From Armatimonadota bacterium (GTDB lineage: Bacteria > Sysuimicrobiota > Sysuimicrobiia > Sysuimicrobiales > Sysuimicrobiaceae): 64,000 nucleotides of DNA. The notes under the pieces were generated by a model. That model was given only the letters and a program-made list of their open reading frames with translations. It made no database searches and was not told where the DNA came from. Location of the stretch: assembly GCA_025059775.1 (NCBI GenBank), contig JANXCW010000003.1, positions 80,284 through 144,283 on the forward strand. Direction: 5' to 3'. Below, in pieces: positions 4,236 to 62,206 of the stretch. The translations under genes and the position numbers were made by a program. Numbering within the stretch: position 1 is the first letter of the stretch; each line of letters starts with the position of its first letter.

Positions 4236-4239
4236 CAGG

Positions 4240-5017: not shown

Positions 5018-5037
5018 AGATCGTGAGGAGGGGATGG

Positions 5038-5697: not shown

Positions 5698-5700
5698 ACC

Positions 5701-5743: not shown

Positions 5744-5744
5744 C

Positions 5745-6239: not shown

Positions 6240-6381
6240 GGCGCCGATCCCAGGGTCCCTTCGACGTCTCCTGCTCGAACTCCTAGTACAATGGGGGTAC
6301 CCGGAACGGTCTTGGGGCCTTTGGGGAACCCCGGGGCTTACCGGAGACGGCAGGGAAGGGATTCCTGAGCGGGAGTGCACG

Positions 6382-7967: not shown

Positions 7968-8016
7968 CGGAACCCCCGGCCTCATCCGGCGGTTTATACT
8001 GAAAGGGAGTGAGCCC

Positions 8017-10680: not shown

Positions 10681-10753
10681 TCCCCTCCCACCGGTTTGCG
10701 GTTTTGCGGGGATTCCGCAGCGGATACCATGATCGCGGAGAGGTGAGGGAAGG

Positions 10754-11879: not shown

Positions 11880-11881
11880 GG

Positions 11882-18625: not shown

Positions 18626-18699
18626 TGGGGGATCGTCTAACGGTAGGACAACGGGCTCTGGACCCGTTAGTGGAGGTTCGAATCCTCCTCCCCCAGCCA
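18626..18699 (+). tRNA. tRNA-Gln (anticodon CUG), CCA encoded
   Basis: Acceptor stem TGGGGGA/TCCCCCA, anticodon loop CTCTGGA (CTG), T-arm GGAGGTTCGAATCCTCC, discriminator G, then genomic CCA. Confidence 0.9.
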
Positions 18700-18714: not shown

Positions 18715-18790
18715 GGCCCCATCGTCTAGAGGCCTAGGATACCGCCCTCTCAAGGCGGAGACGGGGATTCGAATTCCCCTGGGGCCACCA
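18715..18790 (+). tRNA. tRNA-Glu (anticodon CUC), CCA encoded
   Basis: Acceptor stem GGCCCCA/TGGGGCC, anticodon stem CCGCC/GGCGG with loop CTCTCAA (CTC), T-loop ATTCGAAT, discriminator A, then CCA. Confidence 0.9.
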
Positions 18791-30046: not shown

Positions 30047-30540
30047 TGGACCGTATCTCCATCGCCCTGTCGGTCAACGGCAAGCCCTACCAGTTGGCGG
30101 TAGAGCCGCGCCGCCTGTTGGCGGACGTCCTGCGCCGCGATCTGGGGTTCACGGGCGTGCATCTGGGGTGCGAGCACGGGGTGTGCGGCGCGTGCACCGT
30201 GCTCCTGGATGGGGAGGTGGTGCGTTCCTGCCTGATGTTCGCGGTGCAGGCGGACGGATATGAGATCCTTACGGTGGAGGGGCTGAACACCTCCGGGGAA
30301 CTTCACCCCGTCCAGCGGGCGTTCATCGAGGAGTTCGGGTTCCAGTGTGGGTTCTGCACGCCCGGCATGATCCTCTCCGCATACCGCCTGCTGCAGGAGC
30401 ATCCGAATCCCTCGGAGTACGAGATCCGTCGTGCTCTTGCGGGCAACCTGTGCCGCTGCACGGGATACGTGGATATTGTGCGGTCCGTTCAGCGCGCTGC
30501 TGTGCTCCTCACGCAGAGGGAGGCATACCGTGCTCCCTAG
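30046..30540 (+). CDS. (2Fe-2S)-binding small subunit of a molybdenum hydroxylase (CoxS-like)
   Basis: [15 protein letters not shown] (plant-type ferredoxin cluster) and QCGFCTPGM...CRCTGY (second cluster). Start overlaps the upstream TAA by 1 nt. Confidence 0.9.
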
Positions 30541-32887
30541 CGGCCGGTACGTGGGCCAGCGCGTCCCCCGTTGGGAGGACCGTCGGTTCGTGGAGGGCCG
30601 GGGACGGTACCTGGATGACCTCAGTCTTCCGGATCAGGTAGAGGTCGCTTTCGCCCGCAGTCCTTACGCCCATGCGCGCATTCGGCGCATCGACCTACAG
30701 GCCGCCCGGAGCCATCCGGAGGCGATCGGGGTGTATGCGTGGGAGGATCTGCGGGACCTCCTGCGTCCCTACTGGACCATGCCGCGGGGTCCTATCCGGC
30801 AGGCGCGCGTCACACCCCTGGCTAGCGAAAAAGTGCGGTGGGTCGGAGAACCGGTGGCCGTGGTGGTGGCGCGGGATCGGTATGTGGCGGAGGACCTGTG
30901 TGAGCTCGTGACGGTGGAGTACGAGCCGCTTGCCCCGGTGGTAGACGCGCTGGAGGCGATGAAGCCCGACAGCCCCCGGCTGTACGAGGAGTGGCCGGAC
31001 AACGTGGTCTCCCACCAGACCTTCCAGGCGGGGAATCCCGAAGCAGAGCTCAGGGGCTGTGCCGTAGTGGTCCGGAAGCGCTTCCGCAGCAATCGGGTCA
31101 CCGCGGTGCCCCTGGAGGGCCGGGGAGTTCTGGCTCGCTGGGACCCGCGGGAGGAAACCCTCACGGTGTGGATGGGGCACCAGGATGTGCACCTCGCCCG
31201 GGCAGTGCTCTCCGAGATCCTGGGCTTGCCCCTGAGCCGGATCCGCGTGGTCAGCCCGGACGTGGGGGGAGCCTTCGGAATCAAGTTGCCCATCTATCCG
31301 GAGGAGATGGTGGTGTGCGCCCTCTCAAGGCTTTTGGGGCGGCCCGTGAAGTGGGTGCAGGATCGACGGGAGAGCCTGCTGGGCGACACGCACGCGCGGG
31401 AAGCCGTGGTGGATGTGGAGGCGGGCTTCGACGCCGCGGGGAAGCTCCGGGCCATGCGGATCCACGTGATCAGCGATGCGGGCGCCTACGCGGTGGCGGG
31501 GCGGGGTCCCATCATCGAGGGCAGCATGCTGGCCCGGGAGCTCCCGGGACCGTACGATCTGCGCCACTACGCCTACACCCTGGACGTGGTGATGACCAAT
31601 AAGGCACCCGTGGCCGTGTACCGGGGCGTGGCCATCCCCGTGAGTACCTTTGTCATGGAACGGGTGATGGACCTCGCCGCGGACGCCCTCCAGATGGACC
31701 CCGCGGAGATCCGGCGCCGGAACCTCATCCGCACGTTCCCCTACGCGACGGTCACCGGGCACGTCTACGACGCGGGTCAGTACCTGGAGGGCCTGGAGAA
31801 GCTGCTGGAACTCGTGGACTACGGAAGGTGGAGGGCGGAGCAGGCGCGGCTGCGGGAGCAGGGGCGCTACCTGGGCGTGGGGATCTGCTGTCTTGTGGAC
31901 GCCACCGCCCGGGGAGGCGGGTTCTACGGTCGGCTGGGGCTGAAGGCGGCCACCCAGGAGGGCTGCATCCTCCGGGTGGATCCCTCCGGCGGGATCATCG
32001 CGGCTTTGGGGACCACCACGCAAGGGCAGGGGCTGCACACGGCGCTCGCGCAGCTCATCGCGGACACCCTCGGGGTTCCCCTGGAGCGGGTCACCGTGGT
32101 GATGGGGGATACCGCCACCACCCCATATGGCGGAGGAGCCTGGGCCAGCCGGGGGGCCGTGGCGGGTGGAGCCGTGGCCCTGCTGGCGGCCCGGAGGTTG
32201 CGGGAGAAAATCCAGCACATCGCGGCCCACCTGCTGGAAGCCGCGCCGGAGGACATCGAACTGGCGGAGGGACGTGCCTTTGTGCGGGGTACCACGGCCC
32301 GCAGTCTGTCGCTGGAGGAGATCGCCCACACCGCCTACTTCGTGGCCGTGGACCTGCCCGCTAGAATGGAGCCAGGCCTGGAGGTGATGGTCCACTGGGA
32401 GCCGGAGATCCCCGCCACCTTTGCATATACGGCGCAGGCCATGGTGGTGGAGGTGCAGCCCGAGACGGGGGCCGTGAACATTTTGAAATACGTCGTGGTG
32501 GAGGATTGCGGCCCCATCATCAACCCGGGGCTCGTGGACGGGCAGCTGCGGGGCGGAATCCTGCAGGGCCTGGGCCAGGCCCTCTACGAGGACCTCGTGT
32601 ACGACGCCCAGGGGCAGCTGCTCACCTCCACCCTCCTGGACTACCTCCTTCCCGGGTTCTGTGAGGCGCCGGAAGTGGAGATCCACCACCTCTCGACCCC
32701 GTCCACGCGGACCGTGGGGGGGCTGCGGGGGATGGCGGAGAGTGGGACCGCTGGTGCGCCCGCGGTGCTGGCGAATGCGGTGGCGGATGCCCTCAAGCCG
32801 TTCGGAGCGGAAGTCACCGCCCTTCCGCTCAGTCCCGCGCGGGTGGCGGAGCTGATACGGGGTCAGAAACCGACGAAAGGAGGGTGA
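30530..32887 (+). CDS. Molybdopterin-binding large subunit of a xanthine-dehydrogenase-family hydroxylase (not a canonical CO dehydrogenase)
   Basis: GTG 30530 after GAGGGAGG. Ald_Xan_dh_C/C2 architecture. The active-site loop reads AVYRGVAIP, not the CODH form I AYRCSFR or form II AYRGAGR. Confidence 0.8.
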   Translation: MLPSGRYVGQRVPRWEDRRFVEGRGRYLDDLSLPDQVEVAFARSPYAHARIRRIDLQAARSHPEAIGVYAWEDLRDLLRPYWTMPRGPIRQARVTPLASEKVRWVGEPVAVVVARDRYVAEDLCELVTVEYEPLAPVVDALEAMKPDSPRLYEEWPDNVVSHQTFQAGNPEAELRGCAVVVRKRFRSNRVTAVPLEGRGVLARWDPREETLTVWMGHQDVHLARAVLSEILGLPLSRIRVVSPDVGGAFGIKLPIYPEEMVVCALSRLLGRPVKWVQDRRESLLGDTHAREAVVDVEAGFDAAGKLRAMRIHVISDAGAYAVAGRGPIIEGSMLARELPGPYDLRHYAYTLDVVMTNKAPVAVYRGVAIPVSTFVMERVMDLAADALQMDPAEIRRRNLIRTFPYATVTGHVYDAGQYLEGLEKLLELVDYGRWRAEQARLREQGRYLGVGICCLVDATARGGGFYGRLGLKAATQEGCILRVDPSGGIIAALGTTTQGQGLHTALAQLIADTLGVPLERVTVVMGDTATTPYGGGAWASRGAVAGGAVALLAARRLREKIQHIAAHLLEAAPEDIELAEGRAFVRGTTARSLSLEEIAHTAYFVAVDLPARMEPGLEVMVHWEPEIPATFAYTAQAMVVEVQPETGAVNILKYVVVEDCGPIINPGLVDGQLRGGILQGLGQALYEDLVYDAQGQLLTSTLLDYLLPGFCEAPEVEIHHLSTPSTRTVGGLRGMAESGTAGAPAVLANAVADALKPFGAEVTALPLSPARVAELIRGQKPTKGG

Positions 32888-32892
32888 GGCGG

Positions 32893-34119
32893 ATGAAAAT
32901 CACACGGCGGGAGTTCCTGAGAGGTGCGCTGGCAGGAGGGGCAGCCCTGGCTGTCCCGGAGGCTCTGCGCTCCATCGCCCATGCGGCACCCCGGGAGCCC
33001 ATCCGCATTGGGTTCCCCGCCCCGCTCACGGGAGCCTTTGCGGACGAGGCGAACTACATGGTACAGGGAGCCACCCTGGCGGTGGAGGAGTTCAACCGGG
33101 CCGGGGGTGTGCTGGGCCGGCAGGTGGAGCTCCTCGTGCGGGACGATAGGCTCAGCCCAGATGAGGGAGCCCGGCGTGCGCTGGAGCTCATCGAGCGGGA
33201 GCGGGTGCACTTCCTGGCGGGCGTGCTCTCCGCCGCGGTGCAGCTCGCGGTGAACGAGGTGGCCAAGCGCCACCGCCGGATCTTCGTCTCCACCAGCCAG
33301 TCGGACAAGATCGTCATGCCTCCGGATTTCAGCCCGTGGACCTTCCACGAGGCCCTCACACCCTGGATGACCTCCACCGCCCTGGCCCGGTATGTCCTGC
33401 GGGAGGGCCGCGGAAAGCGGGTGTACATCCTCTATGCAGACTACGCCTACGGACAGGAGCACACCGCCGCCTGGCGCCGCGTGATCGGGGAGGTGGGAGC
33501 GACCCTGGTGGGGGTGGATCCACACCCCCTCGGTACCACGGACTACTCCGCATACCTGCCGAAGATCGTGGCAGCCCGTCCTGACGTGCTGGTGCTGAAC
33601 AACTTCGGAAGGGACATCGTGAATTCCGCCAAGCAGGCGGTGGAACTGGGCCTCAAGCAACGGGCGCAGATCGCGGTTCCCATCATCCCTACCGCCGCAG
33701 CCCTGGAGGCGGGTCCGGAGGTGCTCGGAGACGTGGTGTGTGCCTCAAGCTACTGGTGGGAGGTCCAGGAGCGGATTCCCAAGGCGAAGGAGTTCAACAC
33801 GAAGTTCAGCCGGCGCTTCAACCGGGTGCCCTCGGACTACGCGGCCTACGCCTACAGCGGCGTGCGGGAGCTACTGGAGGCCGTGCAGCGGACCGGAACC
33901 ACGGACAGCGACCGGGTGGCAAAGGCCATGGAGGGACGCCGCTACGCCCACTACAAGGACACCCAGTACTGGCGCGCGTGCGACCACCAGTCCGTCCAGA
34001 CCATCTTCCTCCTGCGGGGACGGGAGCGGCCGCGGGGGCCTTATGGGCTCTTCGACATCATCGCCACTGTGGAGGGGGAGCGCGTGATCCCCAGCTGCGA
34101 GGCCCTGGGACACCGCTAG
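32893..34119 (+). CDS. Branched-chain-amino-acid-type (Liv-family) ABC transporter substrate-binding protein, Tat signal
   Basis: MKITRREFLRGALAGGAALAVPEA signal, then the periplasmic binding fold of the LivJ/LivK family (..IRIGFPAPLTGAFADEANYMVQGATLAVEEFN..). Confidence 0.85.
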   Translation: MKITRREFLRGALAGGAALAVPEALRSIAHAAPREPIRIGFPAPLTGAFADEANYMVQGATLAVEEFNRAGGVLGRQVELLVRDDRLSPDEGARRALELIERERVHFLAGVLSAAVQLAVNEVAKRHRRIFVSTSQSDKIVMPPDFSPWTFHEALTPWMTSTALARYVLREGRGKRVYILYADYAYGQEHTAAWRRVIGEVGATLVGVDPHPLGTTDYSAYLPKIVAARPDVLVLNNFGRDIVNSAKQAVELGLKQRAQIAVPIIPTAAALEAGPEVLGDVVCASSYWWEVQERIPKAKEFNTKFSRRFNRVPSDYAAYAYSGVRELLEAVQRTGTTDSDRVAKAMEGRRYAHYKDTQYWRACDHQSVQTIFLLRGRERPRGPYGLFDIIATVEGERVIPSCEALGHR

Positions 34120-34141
34120 GGGAGGAGACGAGGCGGTCCCC

Positions 34142-35005
34142 GTGAGCGGGCAAGCCCTGTTGCTGCAGCTCGTGACGGGCGTGGTGGTAGGTGCCATCTG
34201 GGTGATCGTGGCCATTGGGCTTTCCCTTATTTTCGGGATCCTGCGCATTGTGAACTTCGCCCACGGCGCCTTCTACATGCTCGGAGCATACCTGGCCGCC
34301 TTCGCCGTCGGCTGGACCGGACACTTCTGGATTGCTCTCCTCGTGGCTCCCTTGAGCATGGCTGCCTTCGGCGTGCTGGTGGAGCGGGGACTGATCGGGC
34401 GGCTCTACGGCCGGGGCCTTGTTTACAGCGTGCTGGCCACCTACGCGGTCAGCCTGGTCGTGATCGAGGGGGTCAAGATCCTGTGGGGAACCGTGGGCCC
34501 TCAGTTCCGGGTGCCCGCGGAACTGGCGGGCATGGTGAACCTGGGGTTCAGTCTCTTCCCCAAATACCGGTTGTTCGTGCTCCTGGCTACAGCCCTCACG
34601 GTGTTGGGCGTGTGGTGGTGGCTGCACCGCACGCCCATGGGGCTCTTTGTCCGGGCCGCGAGCCAGGACCCTCTGATGACGCAGGCTCTGGGGGTGGACA
34701 TCGCCCGGGTGCTGGCCGGCGCCTTCGGCGCAGGGGTCGCCCTGGCGGGGCTAGGAGGGACTCTGGCGGGGCCCCTGCGGGGCGTCTTCCCGGAAATGGG
34801 GCTCGATATCCTCGTGGAGTCCTTCGTGGTCGTGGTCATCGGAGGGATGGGGAGCCTGCTGGGCGCGGTGGTGGCAGGGCTGCTGGTGGGTGTGGTTCAA
34901 AGCTTCACCTTCCTCCTGGCCCCGGTGTTCGCGCACGTGGTCCTCTTCCTCCTCATGATCGCCACCCTGCTGGTTCGGCCCCAGGGTCTGTTCGGCACGG
35001 AGTGA
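34142..35005 (+). CDS. Branched-chain amino acid ABC transporter permease (LivH-type)
   Basis: GTG 34142. Polytopic LivH-like permease (..IVNFAHGAFYMLGAYLA..). Confidence 0.85.
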   Translation: MSGQALLLQLVTGVVVGAIWVIVAIGLSLIFGILRIVNFAHGAFYMLGAYLAAFAVGWTGHFWIALLVAPLSMAAFGVLVERGLIGRLYGRGLVYSVLATYAVSLVVIEGVKILWGTVGPQFRVPAELAGMVNLGFSLFPKYRLFVLLATALTVLGVWWWLHRTPMGLFVRAASQDPLMTQALGVDIARVLAGAFGAGVALAGLGGTLAGPLRGVFPEMGLDILVESFVVVVIGGMGSLLGAVVAGLLVGVVQSFTFLLAPVFAHVVLFLLMIATLLVRPQGLFGTE

Positions 35006-35014
35006 GGGGTAGGC

Positions 35015-36031
35015 ATGGAGCTGAAGGTCCCGTCTGAATTGCTCATGACCCGCCGGCCCCTGCAGGCCCTGGCCTTTCCCGCGGCCCTGGTCGCCTTCCT
35101 CGTCCTCCTTCCCGTGGGGCTCCCCTACGAGGCCCTGGCAGCCCAGATCCTCGTATACGCCCTGTTCAGCCTGGGTTACAACCTGCTCTTTGGGTACACG
35201 GGGCTACTGTCCTTCGGGCACGCGGCCTTCTTCGGACTGGGAGGCTACACCGCGGGGCTGCTGGCCCGGAGGATCACCGCGAACGTGCTGTGGACCCTCC
35301 CCGCCGCCGTCGTCGTCGGTGCGGTGGCGGGAGCGGTGGTGGGGTTTTTCTGTCTCCGCCGGCGGGGGGACTACTTCTCCCTCATGACCCTGGCCTTCGG
35401 GCAGCTTCTGTACTTCATCGCGCACCAGTGGCGGGAGCTGACGGGGGGTGATGACGGTCTGCGTGGGATCCCCACGGCCTACCTGCAACTGGGACCGTGG
35501 ACGTTCCCGCTGGAGAGCTCCCGGGACGTCTACGTCCTCATCGCCACGCTGACCTTCGCGGGGTTCCTAGGCTTCCGGAGGTTGCTCCGCTCCCCCTTTG
35601 GCAGCGCCCTGCAGGCCATCCGGGAGAACGAGCTCCGGGCGGAGGCCGTGGGCTACGACACCTTTCGTCTGAAGCTGTGGGCCTTTGTGCTCTCCGCGGC
35701 CCTGAGCAGCGCCGCGGGGGCCCTGAACGTGTACCTCCTGAAGTTCGTGGGCCTCAACAGCCTGCACTGGACCACTTCCGGTTACGCGGTTCTGATCACC
35801 ATCCTGGGAGGAGCGGGGACGCTGCTGGGACCCCTCGTGGGAGCCCTAGCCTTCGTGGGGCTGCAGGACGTCCTCAGCGCCATTCCCGCCATCGTGGACC
35901 GATGGCCCTTTTTTGTGGGGCTGCTGTTCATTGTGTGCGTCCTGGTGTTCCCGCACGGGATCTGGGGGACTGTGGAGCGGCTGCAGGCCCGGCTGCGGTG
36001 GCGTGCGGTTCCAGGAGGGGTGGAGGGATGA
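35015..36031 (+). CDS. Branched-chain amino acid ABC transporter permease (LivM-type)
   Basis: LivM-like permease (..FGYTGLLSFGHAAFFGLGGYTAGLL..). Confidence 0.85.
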   Translation: MELKVPSELLMTRRPLQALAFPAALVAFLVLLPVGLPYEALAAQILVYALFSLGYNLLFGYTGLLSFGHAAFFGLGGYTAGLLARRITANVLWTLPAAVVVGAVAGAVVGFFCLRRRGDYFSLMTLAFGQLLYFIAHQWRELTGGDDGLRGIPTAYLQLGPWTFPLESSRDVYVLIATLTFAGFLGFRRLLRSPFGSALQAIRENELRAEAVGYDTFRLKLWAFVLSAALSSAAGALNVYLLKFVGLNSLHWTTSGYAVLITILGGAGTLLGPLVGALAFVGLQDVLSAIPAIVDRWPFFVGLLFIVCVLVFPHGIWGTVERLQARLRWRAVPGGVEG

Positions 36032-36777
36032 CGGCACCGGTGCTCGCAACGGAGCGGCTGACCCGGCGGTTCGGATCCCTGGCCGCGGTGGACGAGGTGA
36101 GCCTAGCCTTGTGGCCCGGGGAGATCCGGGGGATCATCGGACCGAACGGGGCCGGCAAGAGTACCCTCCTCCGCTTGATGGCGGGAGAGATCCGGCCGAG
36201 CGCGGGGAGGATCCTCTACCGGGGCCAGGACATAACGGGCCGGTCCATGTACCAGCTGGCGCGAAGCGGTATTGTGAAGTCCTTTCAGATCACGCAGGTG
36301 TTCCCGAACCTCACCTGCCTGGAGAACGTCCGGGTGGTGGTCCAGGGACCCGGTCGGGCGTGGAACTTCTGGCAGCGGGTGGATCTGGATCGGACCACCC
36401 TGGAGCGGGCGGAAGCCCTGCTGGCCCGGGTGGGGCTGTACGGGAAGCGGGACCTCCCCGCCTATGCGCTGTCCCACGGGGAACAGCGGCACCTGGAGAT
36501 CGCCATGGCCCTCGCCATGGATCCGGTGGTTCTGCTCCTGGACGAGCCGACCGCAGGGATGAGCGCGGAGGAGATCCAGAGCACCATGAAGCTCCTGCAG
36601 GACGTGGCACGGGAGCGGACCATCGTCATCGTGGAGCACAAGATGCCCGTCATCATGAACCTCTGTCAACGGATCACCGTGCTGCACTTCGGGCGCATCC
36701 TGGCGGAGGGGACTCCGGAGGAGATCCAGGCGTCCGAGGAGGTTCAGGCGGTGTACCTGGGGAGGGCCCGGGGATGA
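36028..36777 (+). CDS. ABC transporter ATP-binding protein (LivG-type)
   Basis: ATGA overlap. Walker A GPNGAGKSTLL, signature LSHGEQRHLEIAMAL, Walker B LLLDEPTAGM. Confidence 0.9.
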   Translation: MTAPVLATERLTRRFGSLAAVDEVSLALWPGEIRGIIGPNGAGKSTLLRLMAGEIRPSAGRILYRGQDITGRSMYQLARSGIVKSFQITQVFPNLTCLENVRVVVQGPGRAWNFWQRVDLDRTTLERAEALLARVGLYGKRDLPAYALSHGEQRHLEIAMALAMDPVVLLLDEPTAGMSAEEIQSTMKLLQDVARERTIVIVEHKMPVIMNLCQRITVLHFGRILAEGTPEEIQASEEVQAVYLGRARG

Positions 36778-37502
36778 GCCGGGAGGCACTGCGGCTGGAG
36801 GACGTTCACGCGTACTACGGGAAGAGCCATGTGCTCCAGGGCGTCTCCCTGGAGGTGGCGGAGGGGGAGTTCGTGGCCCTAGTCGGGCGCAACGGAGCGG
36901 GCAAGTCCACCATCCTCAAGAGCATCATGGGCATCGTGCCACCACGCACGGGCCGGGTGCTGCTGGGAGGGCAGGAGATCACCGGGTTCGCCCCACACGA
37001 GGTCTCCCGACGCGGGATCGCGTGGGTACCCGAAGAGCGCCGGGTGCTCCCGGAGCTCACCGTGGAGGAGAACCTGTGGCTCGCCCTGCACGCCGCGGGC
37101 ATAAGGGGGAGGGAGGCCAGCGCGCGGCTGGAGGATGCCTTCTCCCTGTTCCCCAGACTTCGGGAGCGGCTCCATCAGAAAGGCCGGACCCTCTCCGGCG
37201 GGGAGCAGCAGATGCTCGCCATCGCCCGGGCCCTGGTGGTGCGTCCCAAGGTCATGCTGGTGGACGAGCCCACCCAAGGGTTGATGCCCCGTCTGGTGAG
37301 CGCCCTGGCGGATGTCCTGCGGGAGATCCACGCCCGCGGGGTGACGGTGGTGCTGGTGGAGCAAATGGTCACGGTGGCCATGGAGCTGGCGCAACGGCTG
37401 TACATCGTGGATCAGGGAAGGGTGCGACTGTGTGCCACTCCCCAGGACATCCAGCGGGATCCACAGCTCGTGCAGTCCCTGCTGGGGGTCTCGGGGGTCT
37501 AG
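36774..37502 (+). CDS. ABC transporter ATP-binding protein (LivF-type)
   Basis: ATGA overlap. GRNGAGKSTIL, LSGGEQQMLAIARAL, MLVDEPTQGL. Confidence 0.9.
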   Translation: MSREALRLEDVHAYYGKSHVLQGVSLEVAEGEFVALVGRNGAGKSTILKSIMGIVPPRTGRVLLGGQEITGFAPHEVSRRGIAWVPEERRVLPELTVEENLWLALHAAGIRGREASARLEDAFSLFPRLRERLHQKGRTLSGGEQQMLAIARALVVRPKVMLVDEPTQGLMPRLVSALADVLREIHARGVTVVLVEQMVTVAMELAQRLYIVDQGRVRLCATPQDIQRDPQLVQSLLGVSGV

Positions 37503-37518: not shown

Positions 37519-38274
37519 ATGCACCAGGAATACCGGGATCACGTGGTGGTGGAGCTCTTCGGAAAACGCATTCACGTGCTGGACCTTTCCCGGGAGATCG
37601 GGCCACACATCCCTGTCTATCCCGGCCACATGCGGGTGGCCACGTGGTGGCACCTGACCCACGAGGACGTCCGGAGGCTGCGTCTGCCGGCGGATTCCCC
37701 CTTCGGAGGATACGGGGTGTTCGGGATCGCCATGTGCGACCACATATCCACGCACGTGGACGCGGTCTACCACTTCAACCCCCAACGCCCGGAGAAGACC
37801 GTGGACCGAATCCCCCTGTCGCAGCTCATCACACCCGGAGTGTGGATCGATGTGAGCTGGGTGCCTCCCCGTCAGCACATCCGGCTTGCGGACGTGCAGC
37901 GAGCTCTGAGGGAAGCGCAGGTGGAGCTCCGCCCGGGCGTCACCCTCCTGTACTACACGGGAGCCGCACGGTACTGGGAAGATCCCTATCGGTTCCTGAC
38001 AGAGTACCCGGGCCTCGACGAGGAGGCCAGCCGCTGGATCCTGGATCAGGGAGTGGTCAACGTGTGCACGGACGCTCCCAGCACGGACAACCCCGCGGAC
38101 CTGAGCTATCCCAACCACAGGGTGCACGGGGAGCGGGAGGTGATCCACACGGAGATCGTGCACAACATCGAGCGCATCCCCCGACACGAGGGGTTCTACG
38201 TCATGTTCCTGCCCCTACGGTTCGTGGGGCTGTCGGGCTCCCCGGTGCGCGCTTTGGCCCTCTGGGAAGAGTAA
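37519..38274 (+). CDS. Cyclase-family protein (kynurenine formamidase / arylformamidase-like metal hydrolase)
   Basis: ATG 37519 after AGGAGGGAG. Cyclase-family His-rich motif region (..MCDHISTHVDAVYHF..) and later conserved HTE. Confidence 0.75.
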   Translation: MHQEYRDHVVVELFGKRIHVLDLSREIGPHIPVYPGHMRVATWWHLTHEDVRRLRLPADSPFGGYGVFGIAMCDHISTHVDAVYHFNPQRPEKTVDRIPLSQLITPGVWIDVSWVPPRQHIRLADVQRALREAQVELRPGVTLLYYTGAARYWEDPYRFLTEYPGLDEEASRWILDQGVVNVCTDAPSTDNPADLSYPNHRVHGEREVIHTEIVHNIERIPRHEGFYVMFLPLRFVGLSGSPVRALALWEE

Positions 38275-38298: not shown

Positions 38299-38481
38299 AT
38301 GCCTGTTATCCGCGTGAGCTCGTTCCCGCAGTCCAAGGAGACCCGCAAGGCCCTGGCGGAGGAGATCACGGAGGTAGTGCACCGCCACACCCAGGTTCCC
38401 AGGGAGTACATCTGGGTGATCTTCGATCCCGTCCCTCAGGAGAACTGGGCGGTGGCGGGTCGCCTGATCTCGGAGCAGTAA
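38299..38481 (+). CDS. 4-oxalocrotonate tautomerase-family protein (Pro-1 tautomerase)
   Basis: ATG 38299 gives an N-terminal M-PVIRVSSFP with the catalytic Pro at position 2. AAAGGAGGGGG RBS 6-8 nt upstream. ~60 aa, the family's typical size. Confidence 0.75.
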   Translation: MPVIRVSSFPQSKETRKALAEEITEVVHRHTQVPREYIWVIFDPVPQENWAVAGRLISEQ

Positions 38482-38499: not shown

Positions 38500-39273
38500 G
38501 TGGATCCGAAAGGGACCGCGCGGTTCTCCCTGGAGGGCAAACGGGCCCTGGTGACGGGGGCGAGCCGGGGACTCGGGGAGGCCATCGCGGTGGGCCTCGC
38601 GGAGGCGGGAGCCCACGTCGCGGTAGCGGGGCGGAGTGGGGCGGACCTGGAACGGGTCGCCCGGCGGATCCAGGAGGTGGGACGACGAGCGGTGGTGGTG
38701 CAGGCGGACGTCACCAGGGTCCAGGACGTCCAGCGTATGGTGGCGGAGGCGGAGGAGCGACTGGGTCCTCTGCACATCCTGGTGAACAACGCGGGGATCA
38801 ACCTCCCGCGGCCCGCCCTGGAGGTCACGGAGGAGGAGTGGGACCTGGTCCTGGATACGAACCTCAAGGGCCTGTTCTTCGCGGCGCAGGCCGCGGGCCG
38901 GCGGATGGTGGAACGGCGCTACGGCCGCATCGTGAACATGGCCTCGCAGATGGGGTTCGTGGGATTCTACTTCCGGGCTGCGTACTGCGCCAGCAAGGCG
39001 GGGGTCGTGAACCTCACGCGGGTGCTCGCCGTAGAGTGGGCGCCGTATGGTGTGACGGTGAACGCAGTGGCGCCGACCTTTGTGGAGACCCCCATGACCC
39101 GGGGCATGCTAGAGGATCCCTGGTTCCGGGAGGAGGTGCTGCGCCGGATTCCCCTGGGCCGTTTGGCGGACCCTCAGGACGTGGTGGCCGCGGTCCTGTA
39201 TCTCGCCTCGGATGCCGCCGCCATGATTACGGGGCACACGCTCCTGGTGGATGGAGGCTGGGTCGCTTGGTGA
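38500..39273 (+). CDS. Short-chain dehydrogenase/reductase (SDR)
   Basis: KRALVTGASRGLGEAIAVGLAEAGAHV (TGxxxGxG), NNAG, catalytic YCASKAG. GTG 38500 start has a weak RBS. Confidence 0.8.
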   Translation: MDPKGTARFSLEGKRALVTGASRGLGEAIAVGLAEAGAHVAVAGRSGADLERVARRIQEVGRRAVVVQADVTRVQDVQRMVAEAEERLGPLHILVNNAGINLPRPALEVTEEEWDLVLDTNLKGLFFAAQAAGRRMVERRYGRIVNMASQMGFVGFYFRAAYCASKAGVVNLTRVLAVEWAPYGVTVNAVAPTFVETPMTRGMLEDPWFREEVLRRIPLGRLADPQDVVAAVLYLASDAAAMITGHTLLVDGGWVAW

Positions 39274-39283
39274 GGAGGAGGCC

Positions 39284-40561
39284 GTGCGGGAATACCTGAA
39301 GCGCGCTCTGCCGAAGGTGGAAGGGGACCGACGCACGGTGGAGGAGACGGTGCGCGGGATCCTGGAGGACGTGCGGCGGCGGGGGGAAGAGGCGGTGCGG
39401 GAGTACTCCCGCCGGTTCGATGGGTGGGATCCTCCGCGATTCCGGGTGACGGAGGAGGAGGTCCAGCGGGCCCGTCGGATCCTGCCGGGCCAACTTCTGG
39501 AAGACATCGAGTTCGCCGCGGAGCAGGTCCGGGCGTTTGCCCGCCTCCAACGGGAGACCCTGCAGCCCTTGGAGACCGAGATACGGCCTGGAGTGATCCT
39601 GGGACACCGACACATTCCCGTCGCTTCCGTGGGGTGCTACGTGCCAGGGGGACGGTACCCCCTCATCGCCTCCGCCCTCATGAGCATCATCACTCCCAAG
39701 GTGGCGGGGGTGGAACGGGTCGTGGCATGTGCCCCCCCACGGGGGGAGGGCATCTACCCCGCCACCCTGGTGGCCATGGCGGTGGCGGGAGCGGATGAGA
39801 TCTACTGCCTGGGCGGCGTACAGGCCCTTGCGGCCATGGCCTACGGGATCCCGGAGATCGAACCCGTGGACATGATCGTGGGCCCCGGTAACGCGTACGT
39901 GGTGGAGGCGAAGCGACAGCTGTTCGGGACCGTAGGCGTGGATCTCCTGGCGGGCCCCACGGAGATTCTCGTCATCGCGGACGATAGCGCGGACCCCCAC
40001 GTGGTGGCCGCGGATCTCCTGGGCCAGGCGGAGCACGGTCCGGACTCCCCGGCGGTGCTGGTGACCACGGATCGCCCTCTCGGCGTGCAGGTGCTGGAGG
40101 AGGTGGAGCGGCTCATTCCTCAACTGCCCACTCGCGAGATTGTCCAGGTCTCGTGGCGGGACCGCGGAGAGGTGATCTGGGTGGACTCCAGAGAGGAGGC
40201 GGTGGCGGTGGCGGACGAGTACGCACCGGAGCACCTGGAGGTTCAGACCCGCGACCCCTCCTGGTACCTGGAGCGGCTCCGGAACTACGGGACGCTCTTT
40301 TTGGGTGAGGAGTCCACGGTGGTGTACTCCGACAAGGCCATCGGCACCAACCACATCCTGCCCACGGGTCGCGCGGCCCGCTTCACGGGAGGGCTGTGGG
40401 TGGGGAAGTTCCTGAAGACGGTGACCTACCAGCGCCTGAGCCGGGAGGCCAGCGTGGAGATCGCCCGGCGGGCCGCGGGCATCTCGGAGGCGGAGGGGAT
40501 GATGGCCCACGCCTACACCGCGCGCTTGCGGATCGATCGGTACACGGAACCTGTGCCCTGA
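39284..40561 (+). CDS. Histidinol-dehydrogenase-family (HisD-like) NAD-dependent dehydrogenase, probably not in histidine biosynthesis
   Basis: GTG 39284 directly after GGTGAGGAGGAGG. HisD-fold signatures (..GCYVPGGRYPLIASALMSIITPKVAGV.., ..GPGNAYVVEAKRQLFGTVGVDLLAGPTE.., ..AEHGPDS..). An upstream in-frame ATG at 39251 would overlap the SDR by 23 nt. Confidence 0.75.
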   Translation: MREYLKRALPKVEGDRRTVEETVRGILEDVRRRGEEAVREYSRRFDGWDPPRFRVTEEEVQRARRILPGQLLEDIEFAAEQVRAFARLQRETLQPLETEIRPGVILGHRHIPVASVGCYVPGGRYPLIASALMSIITPKVAGVERVVACAPPRGEGIYPATLVAMAVAGADEIYCLGGVQALAAMAYGIPEIEPVDMIVGPGNAYVVEAKRQLFGTVGVDLLAGPTEILVIADDSADPHVVAADLLGQAEHGPDSPAVLVTTDRPLGVQVLEEVERLIPQLPTREIVQVSWRDRGEVIWVDSREEAVAVADEYAPEHLEVQTRDPSWYLERLRNYGTLFLGEESTVVYSDKAIGTNHILPTGRAARFTGGLWVGKFLKTVTYQRLSREASVEIARRAAGISEAEGMMAHAYTARLRIDRYTEPVP

Positions 40562-40588: not shown

Positions 40589-41029
40589 GTGGACATCCGG
40601 TCGCTGCAACACTGCAGCCTCGTGGTGCGGGACCTGGAACGCTCCCGGTGGTTCTACGGAACCGTCCTGGGGCTCGAGGAGATCCCGCGGCCCTCCACCT
40701 TCACCTTCCGGGGGGCATGGTTCCGGCGAGGGGGTGCGGAAGTACACCTCATCCTGGCGGAGGACACCACGGCTCCGCCGGGCTTTCCGGACGCGGGGAG
40801 CGCGAAGCGCACGGGTCTTGCCACCCATTTCGCCTTCGAGGTGGCGGACCTTGAGGCGGCCCGCGCGGAGCTCAGCCGGGCCGGGATCCCCATCGTGGGA
40901 GGTCCCATGCCGCGGGGCGATGGGGTGATGCAGATGTACGTGGAGGACCCGGACGGCTACCTAATTGAGCTCTTCCAGCGTACCCCCGAAGGGGTGGGAG
41001 GCCCGGAGCGGGGGGCGGTACGAGGATAG
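40589..41029 (+). CDS. VOC-family (glyoxalase/bleomycin-resistance/dioxygenase fold) protein, single domain
   Basis: GTG 40589 after GGGAAGGAGGGAGAG. LQHCSLVVRDLERSRWFYGTVLGLEEI... matches the VOC fold. Confidence 0.7.
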   Translation: MDIRSLQHCSLVVRDLERSRWFYGTVLGLEEIPRPSTFTFRGAWFRRGGAEVHLILAEDTTAPPGFPDAGSAKRTGLATHFAFEVADLEAARAELSRAGIPIVGGPMPRGDGVMQMYVEDPDGYLIELFQRTPEGVGGPERGAVRG

Positions 41030-41034
41030 GGGCC

Positions 41035-42264
41035 GTGCTCCGGAGGCCTCTGCGGGTCGCGGTCGCGGGGGGATCCCTGGGGGGACTCAACGCGGGGCTG
41101 TGGCTCCGCTCCATCGGCTGTGCGGTCACCGTTTACGAGCGCTCCTTGCACCTCCTGGAGGGTCGAGGAGTTGGGATCGTCCTGCATCCTGCCACCGTCC
41201 GGTACCTGGTGCGCCACGGGATGGCGCTTCCCTCGTTTGCGGCAGCGGTAGGTAAGCTACGGTATCTGGACCGCGCGGGTACGGTGGTCCACGAGAGTCC
41301 CTGCCGCTACTGGTTCGCCTCGTACTCCTCCCTGTACCGTGCGTTCCTTGGGTTTTTCGGGCGGGAGCGGTACCGCCTGGGCTGTGAGGTCTTGGCTTAC
41401 GAGGAACGGAGGGACGGAGTCCGGGTGCGGCTGGCGGACGGGACCGAGAAAAGCGCGGATCTTCTCGTGTGGGCGGACGGCGTCCGATCCACAGGCCGTG
41501 GGTGGATCGCGCCCGGAACTTCCTTCCGTTATGCGGGATACCTGGCCTGGCGGGGAACCGTGGGGCCGGGAGAGGTTTCTCCCCAGACCTTCGCGTGGCT
41601 GTCGGAGTCCATCACGTACTTCCTCCTGCAGCCCGGCCACGCCCTGGCTTACCCCATCGTGCAGGCGGATGAGGCCCGGGGAGCGGGCAGCCGGATCAAC
41701 TGGGTATGGTACTGGAACGTGGAGGCTGCCCATCTGGACGCGTTCATGACGGATCGGGCGGGCAATCGGCAGCCCGTCTCGGTTCCTCCGGGAAGCGTTC
41801 GGGAGAACTTGGTGGAGCAGCTGCGGGAGCGGGCGCGTTTGGAGCTCCCGCCGCAGCTGGCGGAGGTGGTTGTCGGGACTGTCCGGCCGTTCCTTCAGCT
41901 CATCGGCGACGTGGAGGTCGGGCGCATGGCCGACAGACGGACCTGCCTGATCGGAGACGCGGCCTTCGTGGCCCGACCGCACATCGCCGCGGGCACCGCG
42001 AAGGCCGCGGAGGACGCGTGGCAGCTCAGCCAGTTCCTGAGCCAGTGCCGGGGGGATGTGGAGGCGGCCTTAGAGCTCTGGGAGCCCCGACAGCGGGACC
42101 TGGGTGCGCGTGTGGTGGCCCGCTCCCGGGAGGTGGGCCAGCGGATGCAGGTGGAGGGCACGTGGCCCGTGGGGGCCCCCCTGCCTTATGGTCTGTACGA
42201 GCCGGGGGATAGCGAGTTCCAGGACGGGGGGGAGTCCGGGATCCGGCAGGGGAGGGGAGCATGA
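41035..42264 (+). CDS. Class A FAD-dependent aromatic-ring monooxygenase (salicylate / hydroxypyridine hydroxylase-like)
   Basis: GTG 41035. N-terminal RVAVAGGSLGGLNAGLWLRSIGCAVTVYER (GxGxxG), DG motif (LLVWADGVRS), C-terminal GD..H FAD contact (LIGDAAFVARPHIAAGTAKAAEDA). Confidence 0.8.
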   Translation: MLRRPLRVAVAGGSLGGLNAGLWLRSIGCAVTVYERSLHLLEGRGVGIVLHPATVRYLVRHGMALPSFAAAVGKLRYLDRAGTVVHESPCRYWFASYSSLYRAFLGFFGRERYRLGCEVLAYEERRDGVRVRLADGTEKSADLLVWADGVRSTGRGWIAPGTSFRYAGYLAWRGTVGPGEVSPQTFAWLSESITYFLLQPGHALAYPIVQADEARGAGSRINWVWYWNVEAAHLDAFMTDRAGNRQPVSVPPGSVRENLVEQLRERARLELPPQLAEVVVGTVRPFLQLIGDVEVGRMADRRTCLIGDAAFVARPHIAAGTAKAAEDAWQLSQFLSQCRGDVEAALELWEPRQRDLGARVVARSREVGQRMQVEGTWPVGAPLPYGLYEPGDSEFQDGGESGIRQGRGA

Positions 42265-43094
42265 GCGCACGGCGGTTCTCCCCAGTGACGCGGCTGGTGG
42301 GTCTGGTGTTCGCAAGCCCGGATCCTGCCAGACAGGTGCGGTTCTACCGCACCGTGATGGGCTTCGCCGCCCTCGGACCGAACCGGGTAGCGGCCGGCCC
42401 TGCACCCTGCTTTCTGGAGTTCCAGCCCGCTCCGGAGCCCGCCCTCCTGTGCACGGTGTATGAGGTGGAGGATCTGCGGGAGGCCCGCGGGCACCTAGAG
42501 GCCGCGGGGGTTCCCTACGAGGAGAGACCGGAGGGCCTGGCCCTGGAGGACGTGGAGGGGCGTCGGTTGGTACTGCAGCCCCCGCAGGAGGTTCCGGATC
42601 CTACCCCGCTGGCCTATCCGGGGCCATATCTACAGCACGTGACCTACACCACCCGGAACCCCGTGGGGGTGGCGGAGTGGTACGAGCGGGCTTTGGGGTT
42701 CCGGGTGTCCGACTGGCAGGGTCGCAACTTCGTGTGGCTCCGCTGCGGCCCCCCGCACCACGTGATGGCCGCGGTACGTGGACCGGAGGTGGGCCTGGAC
42801 CACTATGCCCTCGAGGTGGCTAGTTGGGAGGACATGAAGCGGTGGGCGGACCACCTGGCGACCCGTGGGATTCCCCTCATCTGGGGACCGGGCCGCCACG
42901 GGCCCGGTAACAACCTCTTCCTGTTCTTCCACGACGCGGACCGGAACCGGGTGGAGCTGTCCGCGGAGCTGGAGCGGTTCTACGACGAGCGGGCCCACTA
43001 CCCGCCCCGGGAGTGGCCTGATAGCCGCTGGGCCGCCAACCAGTGGGGCCCGCAGCCGGATTGGCGAAGGCCGGAGGGAGGCCCGGTGGAGTAG
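42261..43094 (+). CDS. Two-domain VOC-family extradiol ring-cleavage dioxygenase-like protein
   Basis: ATGA overlap. Two tandem VOC modules, the second with the HHVMAAV...HYALEV...GPGRHGPGNNLFLFFHDADRNRVELS pattern of catechol-2,3-dioxygenase-like enzymes. Confidence 0.7.
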   Translation: MSARRFSPVTRLVGLVFASPDPARQVRFYRTVMGFAALGPNRVAAGPAPCFLEFQPAPEPALLCTVYEVEDLREARGHLEAAGVPYEERPEGLALEDVEGRRLVLQPPQEVPDPTPLAYPGPYLQHVTYTTRNPVGVAEWYERALGFRVSDWQGRNFVWLRCGPPHHVMAAVRGPEVGLDHYALEVASWEDMKRWADHLATRGIPLIWGPGRHGPGNNLFLFFHDADRNRVELSAELERFYDERAHYPPREWPDSRWAANQWGPQPDWRRPEGGPVE

Positions 43095-43136: not shown

Positions 43137-43658
43137 ATGACAGGAGTAAACGGGGAACGGTCGATGGATGCTCCCACCTTCCGTCGGATCATGGGGCAGT
43201 TCGCCACGGGGGTGACCATCCTCGCGGCGAGAGCGGGGAACGTGATACACGGCATGACCGCCAATGCCTTTACCTCCGTGTCCCTCCATCCCCCTCTCGT
43301 GCTCGTGTGCGTGGCGAACGCCTCCCGGACAAAGCAGGTGCTGGACAGGGCGGGCTGGTTTGCGGTAAGCATTCTGGCCGGTGACCAGGGGGAGGTGGCG
43401 CGGATCTTCTCGAACCCGGACCTGGACGGAACGCAGCGCTTCGCCCGGGTGCGGTGGCGGGCAGGGCAGAGCGGGGCCCCTATCATCGAGGATTGTCTCG
43501 CCTACCTGGAGTCCCGGGTCGTGGCCACCTACGAGGCCGGTGACCACACCGTGTACCTGGGGGAGGTGGAGCGGGGGGAGGTCGTCCGGCCGGAGGGAGC
43601 GCCCCTCGTCTTCTTTCGCGGGGACTACGGGATCCTGAACGGGAGGGGGGAAGCATGA
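43137..43658 (+). CDS. NAD(P)H-dependent flavin reductase (HpaC/RutF-like)
   Basis: FRRIMGQFATGVTILAARAGNVIHGMTANAFTSVSLHPPLVLVCV matches Flavin_Reduct. An alternative ATG at 43164 is in frame. Confidence 0.8.
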   Translation: MTGVNGERSMDAPTFRRIMGQFATGVTILAARAGNVIHGMTANAFTSVSLHPPLVLVCVANASRTKQVLDRAGWFAVSILAGDQGEVARIFSNPDLDGTQRFARVRWRAGQSGAPIIEDCLAYLESRVVATYEAGDHTVYLGEVERGEVVRPEGAPLVFFRGDYGILNGRGEA

Positions 43659-44878
43659 AGGTGTTCGTCTTCGATCTCCTGCCCTATGCGGAGCACCTGG
43701 ACCATCTGAAGAGAGGAGACGAGCTGCCGTGGCCGCTGCCGAGGAGGTACTTTAAGCCTGAAGTGGCGGTCCGCACGTACGAGGAGCACCTGGAGGCGTG
43801 GGAGGAGATGGAGCGGCTGGGCTACGACGGGGTGGGGTTCAACGAGCACCACACCTCCCCGTACGGCCTCATGAACTCTCCCAACCTCATGGCCGCGGCC
43901 CTGAGCCAGCGCACCAAGCGCCTACGCATGCTGATCTACGCGAACCTCCTGCCCCTCCACAACCCCCTCCGGCTCGCGGAGGAGATCGCCATGCTCGATT
44001 GCCTCACAAACGGCCGGATCATCGCGGGGATCGCCCGAGGTATTCCCCGGGAGTACCGGGTGTACAACATCCCCTATGCGGAGTCCCGGGAGCGGTTCGA
44101 GGAGGCGTGGGAGATCCTGCGGGGCCTGTGGACGGAGGAGATCTTCAGCTACGAGGGGAAGTACTGGACCTTCAAGGATGTGGCCATCTGGCCGAGGCCG
44201 GTCCAGCAGCCTCACCCTCCCGTGTGGGTGCCCGTGACCACCAGCAAGGAGACCATCGAATTCGCGGCCAAGTACAACCTGCCCATTACCCCGGGGCTTG
44301 GGGGCCGCGGGAGTCGGGGGCTACAACAGGACATCATCCGGTACTACGCGGCCCAACTGGCGGTCCACGGGCGTCGGATCACCCCGGAGCACCTGGTCAT
44401 TAGCGTGGACGTGTACGTAGCCGACAGCAAGGAACAGGCCTTCCGGGAGGCGGCACCGTACGCCCTGTACTTCTACCGGACGCTCTTCAGCCACGGGAAC
44501 GTGACGGACACCCGGGTGCAGCGGGAGATGGGGTACGTGAGCAAACATGCCCACGACTACATCCGGCCCGAGAACCGGACAGCGGCCCTCATGGAGCGGG
44601 AGTGGTACCGGGGGATGACCCCCGAGCGGCTCCGGCAGCATGTGGAGCACCTCCCCTGGGGAAGTCCGGAGGAGGTGCGGGAACGGATCCTCGAGGAGGC
44701 GGAGGCCCTGGGGGCGAACACCGTCCTCGTGCACATGAACCGGGGGGCCATGCCCCACGAGATGTTCTTAAACCAGCTCCGGCGTTTCGCCCGGGAGGTG
44801 CTGCCCGCCCTCCACGCCCATGAGGTACAGAAGGTGCCGTTGGAGGAAGAAGAAGTACCGGCCTCACGAAGGGAATAG
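43655..44878 (+). CDS. LLM-class (luciferase-like) flavin-dependent monooxygenase
   Basis: ATGA overlap with the flavin reductase. GYDGVGFNEHHTSPYGLMNSPNLMAAAL... matches the bacterial-luciferase-like TIM barrel. Confidence 0.85.
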   Translation: MKVFVFDLLPYAEHLDHLKRGDELPWPLPRRYFKPEVAVRTYEEHLEAWEEMERLGYDGVGFNEHHTSPYGLMNSPNLMAAALSQRTKRLRMLIYANLLPLHNPLRLAEEIAMLDCLTNGRIIAGIARGIPREYRVYNIPYAESRERFEEAWEILRGLWTEEIFSYEGKYWTFKDVAIWPRPVQQPHPPVWVPVTTSKETIEFAAKYNLPITPGLGGRGSRGLQQDIIRYYAAQLAVHGRRITPEHLVISVDVYVADSKEQAFREAAPYALYFYRTLFSHGNVTDTRVQREMGYVSKHAHDYIRPENRTAALMEREWYRGMTPERLRQHVEHLPWGSPEEVRERILEEAEALGANTVLVHMNRGAMPHEMFLNQLRRFAREVLPALHAHEVQKVPLEEEEVPASRRE

Positions 44879-62137: not shown

Positions 62138-62206
62138 GATCCGCCTCCTGGTGGCCGACTTCGGGGGAAGAGTTACCCCTTACGCAGAATGAAGGAAGAA
62201 GGGATC

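Follow-up and report, generated by a model that had tools for sequence, protein, structure and literature searches.

The gene analyzed here occupies positions 39284-40561 on the plus strand of a 64-kb stretch of DNA from an Armatimonadota bacterium (contig JANXCW010000003.1; the whole stretch is called the window below). It encodes a dehydrogenase of the family that comprises histidinol dehydrogenase (HisD) and the sulfopropanediol dehydrogenase HpsN. Judged by its sequence, the protein is neither the histidinol dehydrogenase of the cell nor an ortholog of HpsN, and belongs to a separate, very widespread and uncharacterized sister clade of the latter. The gene and the signal in front of it are:

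39284-40561 (+): HisD/HpsN-family dehydrogenase, 425 aa; GTG start, stop TGA at 40559-40561
39274-39281 (+): Shine-Dalgarno-like GGAGGAGG, 2 nt ahead of the GTG start; sequence read directly

The first-pass annotation of this DNA had placed the start 11 nt past the stop of a short-chain dehydrogenase/reductase (SDR) gene and behind a ribosome-binding site, and a vicinal oxygen chelate (VOC) protein gene 28 nt downstream. Direct reading confirmed these positions: the SDR stop TGA lies at 39271-39273, and GTG 39284 follows 11 nt after its last base (a 10-nt gap), with GGAGGAGG in between; the GTG of the VOC gene, at 40589, follows 28 nt after the stop of the HisD-like gene (a 27-nt gap). There is an alternative in-frame ATG upstream, at 39251. 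The GTG is preferred because GGAGGAGG stands directly ahead of it, because an identical 425-aa database protein (P0001) from an Armatimonadota metagenome-assembled genome (MAG) starts there, because an identical metagenome contig (L006) carries the same gene call, and because the N-termini of homologs open with MREYLK at the equivalent position. The G+C content of the window is 64-71%, with a mean of about 68%.

Protein family, active site and phylogenetic placement

The HisD fold named in the first-pass annotation was confirmed by a full-length match to PF00815 (484 bits, residues 14-416 against profile positions 6-410 of 411). Among all solved structures the best relative was HpsN of Cupriavidus pinatubonensis (CpHpsN; 432 bits, about 50% identity, residues 3-420), while solved HisD proteins scored 273-298 bits, i.e. 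130-160 bits below HpsN, at about 33-38% identity. With the AlphaFold model of the protein (predicted TM-score 0.82), Foldseek placed HpsN chains first (TM 0.74-0.77, best E-value 3e-36) and HisD second (TM about 0.70), and every match outside the family had an E-value above 1e-7. HpsN, which had been suggested for comparison, is therefore an apt choice, being the closest characterized and solved relative. The same fold is found in HpsN of C. pinatubonensis (PDB 8V35 and 9CP7), of Ruegeria pomeroyi (8WWE) and of Bilophila, the last acting on L-cysteinolate, as well as in HisD of Escherichia coli (1K75, 1KAE), Brucella suis (4G07) and Medicago truncatula (5VLB).

Alignment with E. coli HisD (EcHisD) and CpHpsN, whose site residues have assigned roles (PMC11382572, PMC5585171), demonstrates conservation of the zinc ligands, namely the Gln and His of GQAEHG, the Asp of SDK and the partner-subunit His of AEGMMAH, as well as of the catalytic Glu-His (PEHLE) and Asn-His. 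The motifs align with Q259, H262, D360, H419 and E326-H327 of EcHisD and with E318, H319 and D352 of CpHpsN. The Asp conferring NAD+ preference on HpsN is also conserved. This full retention of zinc-binding and catalytic residues agrees with the chemistry that the first-pass annotation had proposed, a four-electron reaction taking a hydroxy- or amino-alcohol to the acid, and a two-step NAD+ mechanism is expected as in HisD.

The characterized enzymes differ in two places next to the substrate. According to the HpsN structural study, the discriminating loop reads G-R-Y-A/S-H in HpsN and G-S-A-P-L in HisD. The last loop residue of HpsN, His126, coordinates zinc in the enzyme without ligand and binds the sulfonate in the complex; it is conserved among HpsN homologs and marks the dehydrogenases of 2,3-dihydroxypropanesulfonate (DHPS). 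Lys353 of HpsN, beside the zinc-binding Asp, hydrogen-bonds the sulfonate. In the window protein the loop is G-R-Y-P-L, which shares its start with HpsN and its Pro-Leu end with HisD and has Leu at the position of His126. The Asp-Lys pair (SDK, aligned with GDK of CpHpsN) follows the HpsN pattern, whereas HisD has Asp-Tyr. The protein fits neither published signature, because it has neither His126 nor the G-S-A loop and Asp-Tyr. The comparison of substrate residues thus showed that those specific to the HisD loop are not conserved, and together with the placement on the HpsN side this supports the original idea of a HisD paralog outside a his context. As for HpsN, the relatedness holds and the orthology does not, because Leu stands in place of His126, the residue that defines HpsN, and the clade is a separate one.

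The same pattern extends to the 120 nearest database homologs (61-100% identity). None of them has His at the loop position; 118 have Leu or Met there, and the remaining two gave no match to the motif. The Asp-Lys pair is present in 118 of the 120, and the loop reads [RK]YP[LM] with few exceptions. In the HpsN clade, His occupies this position in CpHpsN, P0122, P0130 and P0153. The family as a whole gave 15,880 hits (E <= 0.001), and a sample of its representatives, clustered at 50% identity, yielded these signatures: GG[RK]YP[LM] / GPTEI / [SG]DK / GGLWVGKF for the clade of the window protein and [AT]GRYAH / GPSEV / GDK / GGLSVHKF for HpsN, so that GPSEV and GGLSVHKF of HpsN correspond to GPTEI and GGLWVGKF. 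The HisD loop in this sample is GG[ST]A[PA][LY], the GSA or GTA of HisD being replaced by GRY in the window protein. In a neighbor-joining tree with 100 bootstraps, the window clade was recovered in 85, HpsN in 98 and both together in 93 replicates; this supergroup excludes canonical HisD (E. coli HisD) and many GDY-type paralogs. The phylogeny that the first-pass annotation had called for hence groups the window protein with the HpsN side, away from canonical HisD. Many other PF00815 representatives pair a GGRYPL or GGRFPL loop with Asp-Tyr and fall outside HisD, HpsN and the window clade; the family appears to contain several further uncharacterized subgroups.

The clade is broadly distributed. 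A search of the GTDB species representatives (one genome per species) with the peptide patterns GGLWVGKF and [IVL]GTNH[IT]LPT yielded at least 600 clade-matching stretches in Proteobacteria, Actinomycetota, Bacillota, Deinococcota, Chloroflexota, Acidobacteriota, Bacteroidota and other phyla. A plasmid search returned 216 records with 53-59% identity, and the clade motifs are present in all four copies inspected, from Geobacillus, Deinococcus, Arthrobacter (where the gene bears the name hisD_2) and Salmonella. Clade members are named "histidinol dehydrogenase" by NCBI and "sulfopropanediol 3-dehydrogenase" by JGI. In the literature we found no characterized member of the clade, the family activities found being those of HisD, of HpsN on DHPS and of HpsN on L-cysteinolate; publications on "hisD2" or a "putative histidinol dehydrogenase" were uninformative.

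The catabolic array and related loci

Around the HisD-like gene, about 25 co-directional genes extend from 27699 to 51809 behind an IclR-family regulator. Intergenic gaps of at most 69 nt give this array an operon-like appearance. The features around the gene are:

26542-27567 (+): IclR-family regulator (PF01614, PF09339), 131 nt upstream of the array; the true start is probably further downstream
27699-29159 (+): CoA-acylating (methyl)malonate-semialdehyde dehydrogenase-type aldehyde dehydrogenase, first gene of the array (TIGR01722, 557 bits, cut-off 448.5)
29183-32887 (+): CoxL/Qor-type molybdenum (Mo) hydroxylase with three subunits (FAD, 2Fe-2S, molybdenum cofactor), by Pfam
32884-37502 (+): Liv/Urt-type ATP-binding cassette (ABC) transporter (binding protein, two permeases, two ATPases), by Pfam and NCBIfam
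37519-38274 (+): PF04199 "cyclase"-family metal-dependent hydrolase of the isatin hydrolase/kynurenine formamidase family (110 bits)
38299-38481 (+): 4-oxalocrotonate tautomerase-family protein, 60 aa, ATG start, Met-Pro N-terminus (PF01361, 52 bits)
38500-39273 (+): SDR, gluconate-5-dehydrogenase/KduD/GolD-DthD-like (PF13561, 233 bits)
40589-41029 (+): VOC protein, 146 aa, by Pfam
40589-43094 (+): the same VOC gene with an FAD monooxygenase and a two-domain VOC/extradiol-dioxygenase-like protein, by Pfam and NCBIfam
43164-44878 (+): pair of flavin reductase and luciferase-like monooxygenase (PF01613, PF00296)

The 3' part of the array consists of a peptide-type ABC transporter, two SDRs, an alpha/beta hydrolase and a zinc-dependent alcohol dehydrogenase (Zn-ADH), which ends the array at about 50.7-51.8 kb, about 10 kb from the HisD-like gene. 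No his genes were detected among the open reading frames (ORFs) scanned with Pfam across the 64 kb, and the gene lies, as the first-pass annotation had stated, inside a degradative cluster and not in a his operon. No second PF00815 gene was found in the window when a hidden Markov model of the clade was run against its six-frame translation. The 60-aa Pro-1 tautomerase of that annotation is real, with the expected Met-Pro start; it is not immediately upstream of the HisD-like gene, as had been written, but two genes before it, with the SDR in between. A promoter and terminator scan of 26-45.9 kb gave no signal above the shuffled expectation, and the Rfam scan returned two tRNAs only, with no riboswitch or leader near the cluster.

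Several array proteins could be compared with named families. The large subunit of the Mo-hydroxylase scored 549 bits against CoxL (the top match) and 521 bits against quinoline 2-oxidoreductase, and 632 bits against the NCBIfam model of the archaeal glyceraldehyde dehydrogenase alpha subunit, under its cut-off of 790. The PF04199 hydrolase, whose start is the one called on the identical contig, has isatin hydrolase as its closest solved structure (42 bits). The tautomerase reached 55.7 bits with the DmpI model (cut-off 70), and the SDR 260 bits with gluconate 5-dehydrogenase and 258 bits with GolD/DthD, both under the NCBIfam cut-offs. For the FAD monooxygenase the best solved relative is 2,6-dihydroxypyridine 3-hydroxylase (2VOU, 244 bits); the two-domain VOC protein matches extradiol dioxygenases weakly. 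The Qor/CoxL-type hydroxylase, the monooxygenase resembling dihydroxypyridine hydroxylase, the extradiol-type VOC protein, the amidohydrolase-type enzyme, the tautomerase and the aldehyde dehydrogenase of the malonate-semialdehyde type suggest that the array degrades an aromatic or N-heterocyclic compound down to malonate semialdehyde. The place of the SDR and the HisD-like enzyme in such a route could not be deduced from the array.

The Mo-hydroxylase was also considered as a CO dehydrogenase; this assignment was rejected, as neither of two CO-dehydrogenase motifs, AYRCSFR and AYRGAGR, was found. Within the array, the segment 43164-48327 (+), with the flavin reductase, the luciferase-like monooxygenase and a peptide/opine-type ABC transporter (SBP_bac_5 and two permeases), is reminiscent in its layout of Rut- or NTA-type two-component monooxygenase systems.

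Next we surveyed the ORFs within 6 kb of the HisD-like gene at 86 loci, using homology clustering and Pfam on selected ORFs. Homologs of the window SDR occur at 63-66 of these loci and adjoin the HisD-like gene on the same strand at about 27. At the 52 loci with full flanks, an SDR homolog lies within 2 kb in 26 cases, compared with two per 2-kb bin beyond 4 kb, which served as an internal control. The SDR is thus a firm recurrent partner of the HisD-like gene. Whether it is specifically HpsO-like was left indecisive by the solved-structure search, the top matches being an uncharacterized SDR, FabG and KduD. Other recurrent neighbors are LacI regulators (23 loci), PF04199 genes (20 loci, often directly upstream), sugar-ABC permeases and D-2-hydroxyacid dehydrogenases (14 loci each), Mo-hydroxylase subunits (14-15 loci) and HpcH/HpaI aldolases (about 12 loci, directly upstream of the clade member in Deinococcus), as well as SnoaL-like and MetE-like proteins, cupins and alpha/beta hydrolases.

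Wherever the Mo-hydroxylase was found (14 loci), the PF04199 gene and the SDR accompany it, which makes the arrangement of the window a recurring module and not a chance one. Besides the window itself, the set takes in one locus each from a related Armatimonadota MAG and from an Ardenticatenaceae genome (Chloroflexi), and eleven loci from Alphaproteobacteria or unclassified proteobacteria. The survey therefore supports as recurrent partners the SDR and, in one repeated context, the Mo-hydroxylase together with the PF04199 hydrolase. The tautomerase and the VOC protein, which the first-pass annotation had named as neighbors, did not recur as partners: among the loci the tautomerase was seen outside the window only in the related MAG (L007; 81% identity, same gene order including the unannotated tautomerase), and a 66% identical VOC homolog was seen at L003, where an FAD monooxygenase (PF01494) adjoins the HisD-like gene. 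The Liv/Urt-type ABC block is found at L007 and L008. In L007 (GCA_031459175.1) a gene of the 4-oxalocrotonate tautomerase family, 67% identical to that of the window, lies at 9046-9230, inside the 240-nt "gap" that separates the cyclase gene from the SDR gene; this 60-aa ORF was overlooked by the gene callers.

At other loci the HisD-like gene has different company. The 75% identical relative L009 combines a Zn-ADH, an SDR and the HisD-like gene. One context consists of LacI, a CUT1 sugar ABC transporter, a Zn-ADH and the SDR. Minimal units occur as well: in Geobacillus there is LacI with the HisD-like gene alone, three Bacillus genomes (L060, L053, L066) have the SDR, the HisD-like gene, LacI and a GntP-family permease, and plasmid pIncFII.1 of Salmonella Milwaukee (NZ_CP030176.1, L094) carries at 7799-11796 LacI, a clade member and a 472-aa permease that is 34% identical to the Bacillus permease and has no Pfam match itself. 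The gene of this permease is absent from the PLSDB gene table; the plasmid is a conjugative IncFII plasmid. A second recurrent context, with three tandem SnoaL-like "ester cyclases", a sugar ABC transporter, a cupin, an alpha/beta hydrolase, an HpcH-type aldolase, LacI and the SDR, is common to Deinococcus, Calidithermus and marine Alpha- and Gammaproteobacteria (L092, positions 1-12064 of a Deinococcus taeanensis plasmid; L086, L019, L026, L040, L045). The motifs of the clade that had not been used for retrieval ([RK]YP[LM], Asp-Lys, GPTE) are unchanged across all contexts.

The pairing with an SDR recalls the hpsN-hpsO-hpsP unit with its tight linkage of a PF00815 enzyme to a PF13561 SDR, likewise seen in the window, and to a Zn-ADH (PF08240/PF00107), likewise linked at L009. 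Neighboring hpsO (PF13561) and hpsP (PF08240/PF00107) served as the selection criterion for HpsN sequences (PMC11382572). In the window the PF13561 SDR is directly upstream, but the Zn-ADH is found only 10 kb downstream, at the array end, and the pair is embedded among Mo-hydroxylase, amidohydrolase and ring-oxygenase genes instead of genes for sulfonate transport and desulfonation. Unlike HpsN, the clade is thus found with the Mo-hydroxylase and PF04199 hydrolase, with LacI and sugar or GntP transporters, or with aldolase/SnoaL sets.

Proposed reaction and competing explanations

We consider it fairly probable that the protein is an NAD+- and Zn2+-dependent four-electron dehydrogenase that converts an alcohol to an acid, acts on a non-imidazole and probably non-sulfonate substrate, represents the sister clade of HpsN and works with the SDR as partner. 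The reaction type is taken from the mechanisms of HisD and HpsN (PMC5585171, PMC11382572). By analogy, a 2-hydroxy or 2-amino group of the substrate and a second group would chelate the zinc, and the adjacent primary alcohol would be oxidized to the acid with two NAD+ in two hydride transfers via a bound aldehyde, i.e. R-CH(OH/NH2)-CH2OH would give R-CH(OH/NH2)-COO-. The HisD-like enzyme and the KduD/gluconate-5-dehydrogenase-like SDR would form a two-gene unit, as HpsN does with HpsO, which has been inserted into different catabolic islands; the SDR might use a compound with the same skeleton, at its secondary alcohol or ketone, or might share the primary alcohol with the HisD-like enzyme, in the manner of HpsO.

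Since the active-site motifs do not vary between the contexts, these probably share a single, small and polar substrate. It would be anionic, because the Lys is retained and because a GntP-family permease adjoins the gene in Bacillus, with its 34% identical relative on the Salmonella plasmid. Retention of the Lys and loss of His126 suggest an anionic group other than a sulfonate, for example a planar carboxylate. That the substrate is a diol or amino-alcohol with a carboxylate or other non-sulfonate group is a guess of ours and explicitly unproven; an acid of the 3,4-dihydroxybutanoate type, for instance, might yield a malate-type product, isosteric with the conversion of DHPS to sulfolactate. 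As candidates only we list 3,4-dihydroxybutanoate, tetronates, 1,2,4-butanetriol, propanediol and glycerol, and further phenylethanediol, hydroxymethyl-pyrimidines and pterin side chains. A wider claim, that the clade represents a third activity of the HisD fold (on a vicinal diol or amino-alcohol that is neither sulfonate nor imidazole, possibly the carboxylate analog of DHPS), that this activity travels with the SDR as a portable unit and that it takes part in a four-enzyme pathway, is possible, if not quite probable, in our estimate. On this view the two-gene unit would occur in hundreds of species of many phyla and, at the 14 loci of Armatimonadota, Chloroflexi and Alphaproteobacteria, would belong to an undescribed pathway together with the CoxL/Qor-type Mo-hydroxylase and the PF04199 hydrolase.

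Annotation in the style of JGI and KEGG would make the protein a true DHPS-3-dehydrogenase HpsN (EC 1.1.1.308), oxidizing R-2,3-dihydroxypropanesulfonate or L-cysteinolate to sulfolactate or cysteate. The roughly 50% identity, the top structural match to CpHpsN and the retained Asp-Lys pair, whose Lys353 binds the sulfonate in HpsN, are all in favor of this, as are the adjoining SDR of the same broad kind as HpsO, the hpsP-hpsO-hpsN-like layout of L009 and the Zn-ADH that closes the array of the window. We nevertheless regard it as unlikely, since the position of His126 holds Leu here and Leu or Met in 118 of the 120 nearest homologs, with His in none of them, and since the tree keeps the clade apart from HpsN. 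Among the scanned ORFs of the window there was no SuyAB-, Xsc- or CuyA-type Pfam family, and no sulfo-lyase-like family among the annotated neighbors at the 86 loci, where the annotation covers some of the commonest families; genes for the desulfonation of sulfolactate or cysteate are often located elsewhere in the genome (PMC11382572). An ordinary histidinol dehydrogenase (EC 1.1.1.23) encoded apart from the other his genes, as in the NCBI annotation, is very improbable. The TIGR00069 (hisD) model does match above its cut-off (477 bits, cut-off 243.8), which accounts for the NCBI name, and all zinc-binding and catalytic residues are kept, including the imidazole-binding Glu of HisD, which is also conserved in HpsN. 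In addition, his genes are dispersed in many bacteria. TIGR00069 is, however, evidently unspecific, as clade members that JGI names sulfopropanediol dehydrogenase receive the NCBI histidinol dehydrogenase name. The protein scores 130-160 bits lower with solved HisD than with HpsN, has Asp-Lys for Asp-Tyr and a GRY loop for GSA, and nests with HpsN away from canonical HisD; its gene starts 11 nt after the stop of its conserved partner SDR, inside a catabolic array. Enterobacteria carry a chromosomal hisD, and clade members are found on plasmids of Salmonella, Klebsiella and Arthrobacter (hisD_2), i.e. in hosts having a chromosomal hisD. HpsN itself had no activity on L-histidinol in the structural study.

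The protein could also be mainly an aldehyde dehydrogenase, performing only the second half-reaction on an alpha-hydroxy-aldehyde such as lactaldehyde or glyceraldehyde, supplied for example by an aldolase. HpsN takes the aldehyde intermediate as a substrate according to the literature, HpcH/HpaI aldolases and D-2-hydroxyacid dehydrogenases recur among the neighbors, the former directly upstream in Deinococcus, and the Mo enzyme of the window comes close, by score, to archaeal glyceraldehyde dehydrogenase. In spite of this the explanation appears improbable: the window array has no aldolase, the nearest one lying at 21587-22387, 17 kb upstream and beyond the regulator; the minimal units of LacI, HisD-like gene and permease imply an imported, stable substrate and not a reactive aldehyde; and every residue of the alcohol step is kept.

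Several points, besides the TIGR00069 match, weigh against the alcohol-to-acid reaction on a non-sulfonate substrate that we favor. The transporters vary by locus (Liv/Urt-type ABC in the window; CUT1 sugar ABC, GntP and NMT1-type elsewhere), and a single common substrate fits poorly with this difference. The substrate and the four-electron stoichiometry are assigned by analogy for the whole clade. In the AlphaFold model, the predicted local distance difference score falls below 50 exactly in the active-site loops 94-111, 217-226 and 347-381, so that the pocket geometry is unreadable. The conservation of GGLWVGKF and [IVL]GTNH[IT]LPT among the species representatives is by construction, since these patterns were used for retrieval, and the operon status of the array was derived from gene spacing only.

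The substrate classes of the HisD fold found in the literature are histidinol and the sulfonates DHPS and cysteinolate, and the window clade would be a large third group, which has kept the catalytic machinery, differs in the substrate loop and numbers at least 600 copies in species representatives. The abundance of hpsN transcripts and genes serves in ocean surveys to track DHPS turnover (PMC11131964). Mislabeled clade members, many of which come from soil-associated lineages (for example Rokubacteria, Chloroflexi and Actinomycetota), could inflate hpsN counts, and if the third activity is real, many environmental "hpsN" counts of the KEGG style and many "hisD" annotations would be wrong. That the SDR, the Mo-hydroxylase and the PF04199 hydrolase recur together suggests a conserved, so far undescribed catabolic route. 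The LacI-dehydrogenase-permease units of cultured Bacillus and of the Salmonella plasmid offer an easy experimental entry for finding the substrate.

Other features of the window

Upstream of the array, the segment 20781-23301 (+) encodes a hydroxypyruvate isomerase/2-oxo-tetronate isomerase-like protein (just under the cut-offs of both NCBIfam models), an HpcH/GarL-type aldolase and a dehydrogenase of the 3-hydroxyisobutyrate/tartronate-semialdehyde reductase family, and is followed by two ABC permeases; this set resembles acid-sugar (glucarate or tetronate) catabolism. Two ORFs, 25169-26743 (+, 524 aa) and 62180-63379 (-, 399 aa), have a coding-like composition and no Pfam match; the former, located behind the two ABC permeases, might encode a solute-binding protein of divergent sequence. 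At 56324-60177 (+), a MoxR AAA+ ATPase, a DUF58 protein and two VWA (BatA-like) proteins make up a MoxR-VWA cluster of the usual type, which has no relation to the HisD-like gene. Two tRNA genes, at 18626-18696 and 18715-18787 (+), directly follow the gene of a glutamyl/glutaminyl-tRNA synthetase (17028-18545).

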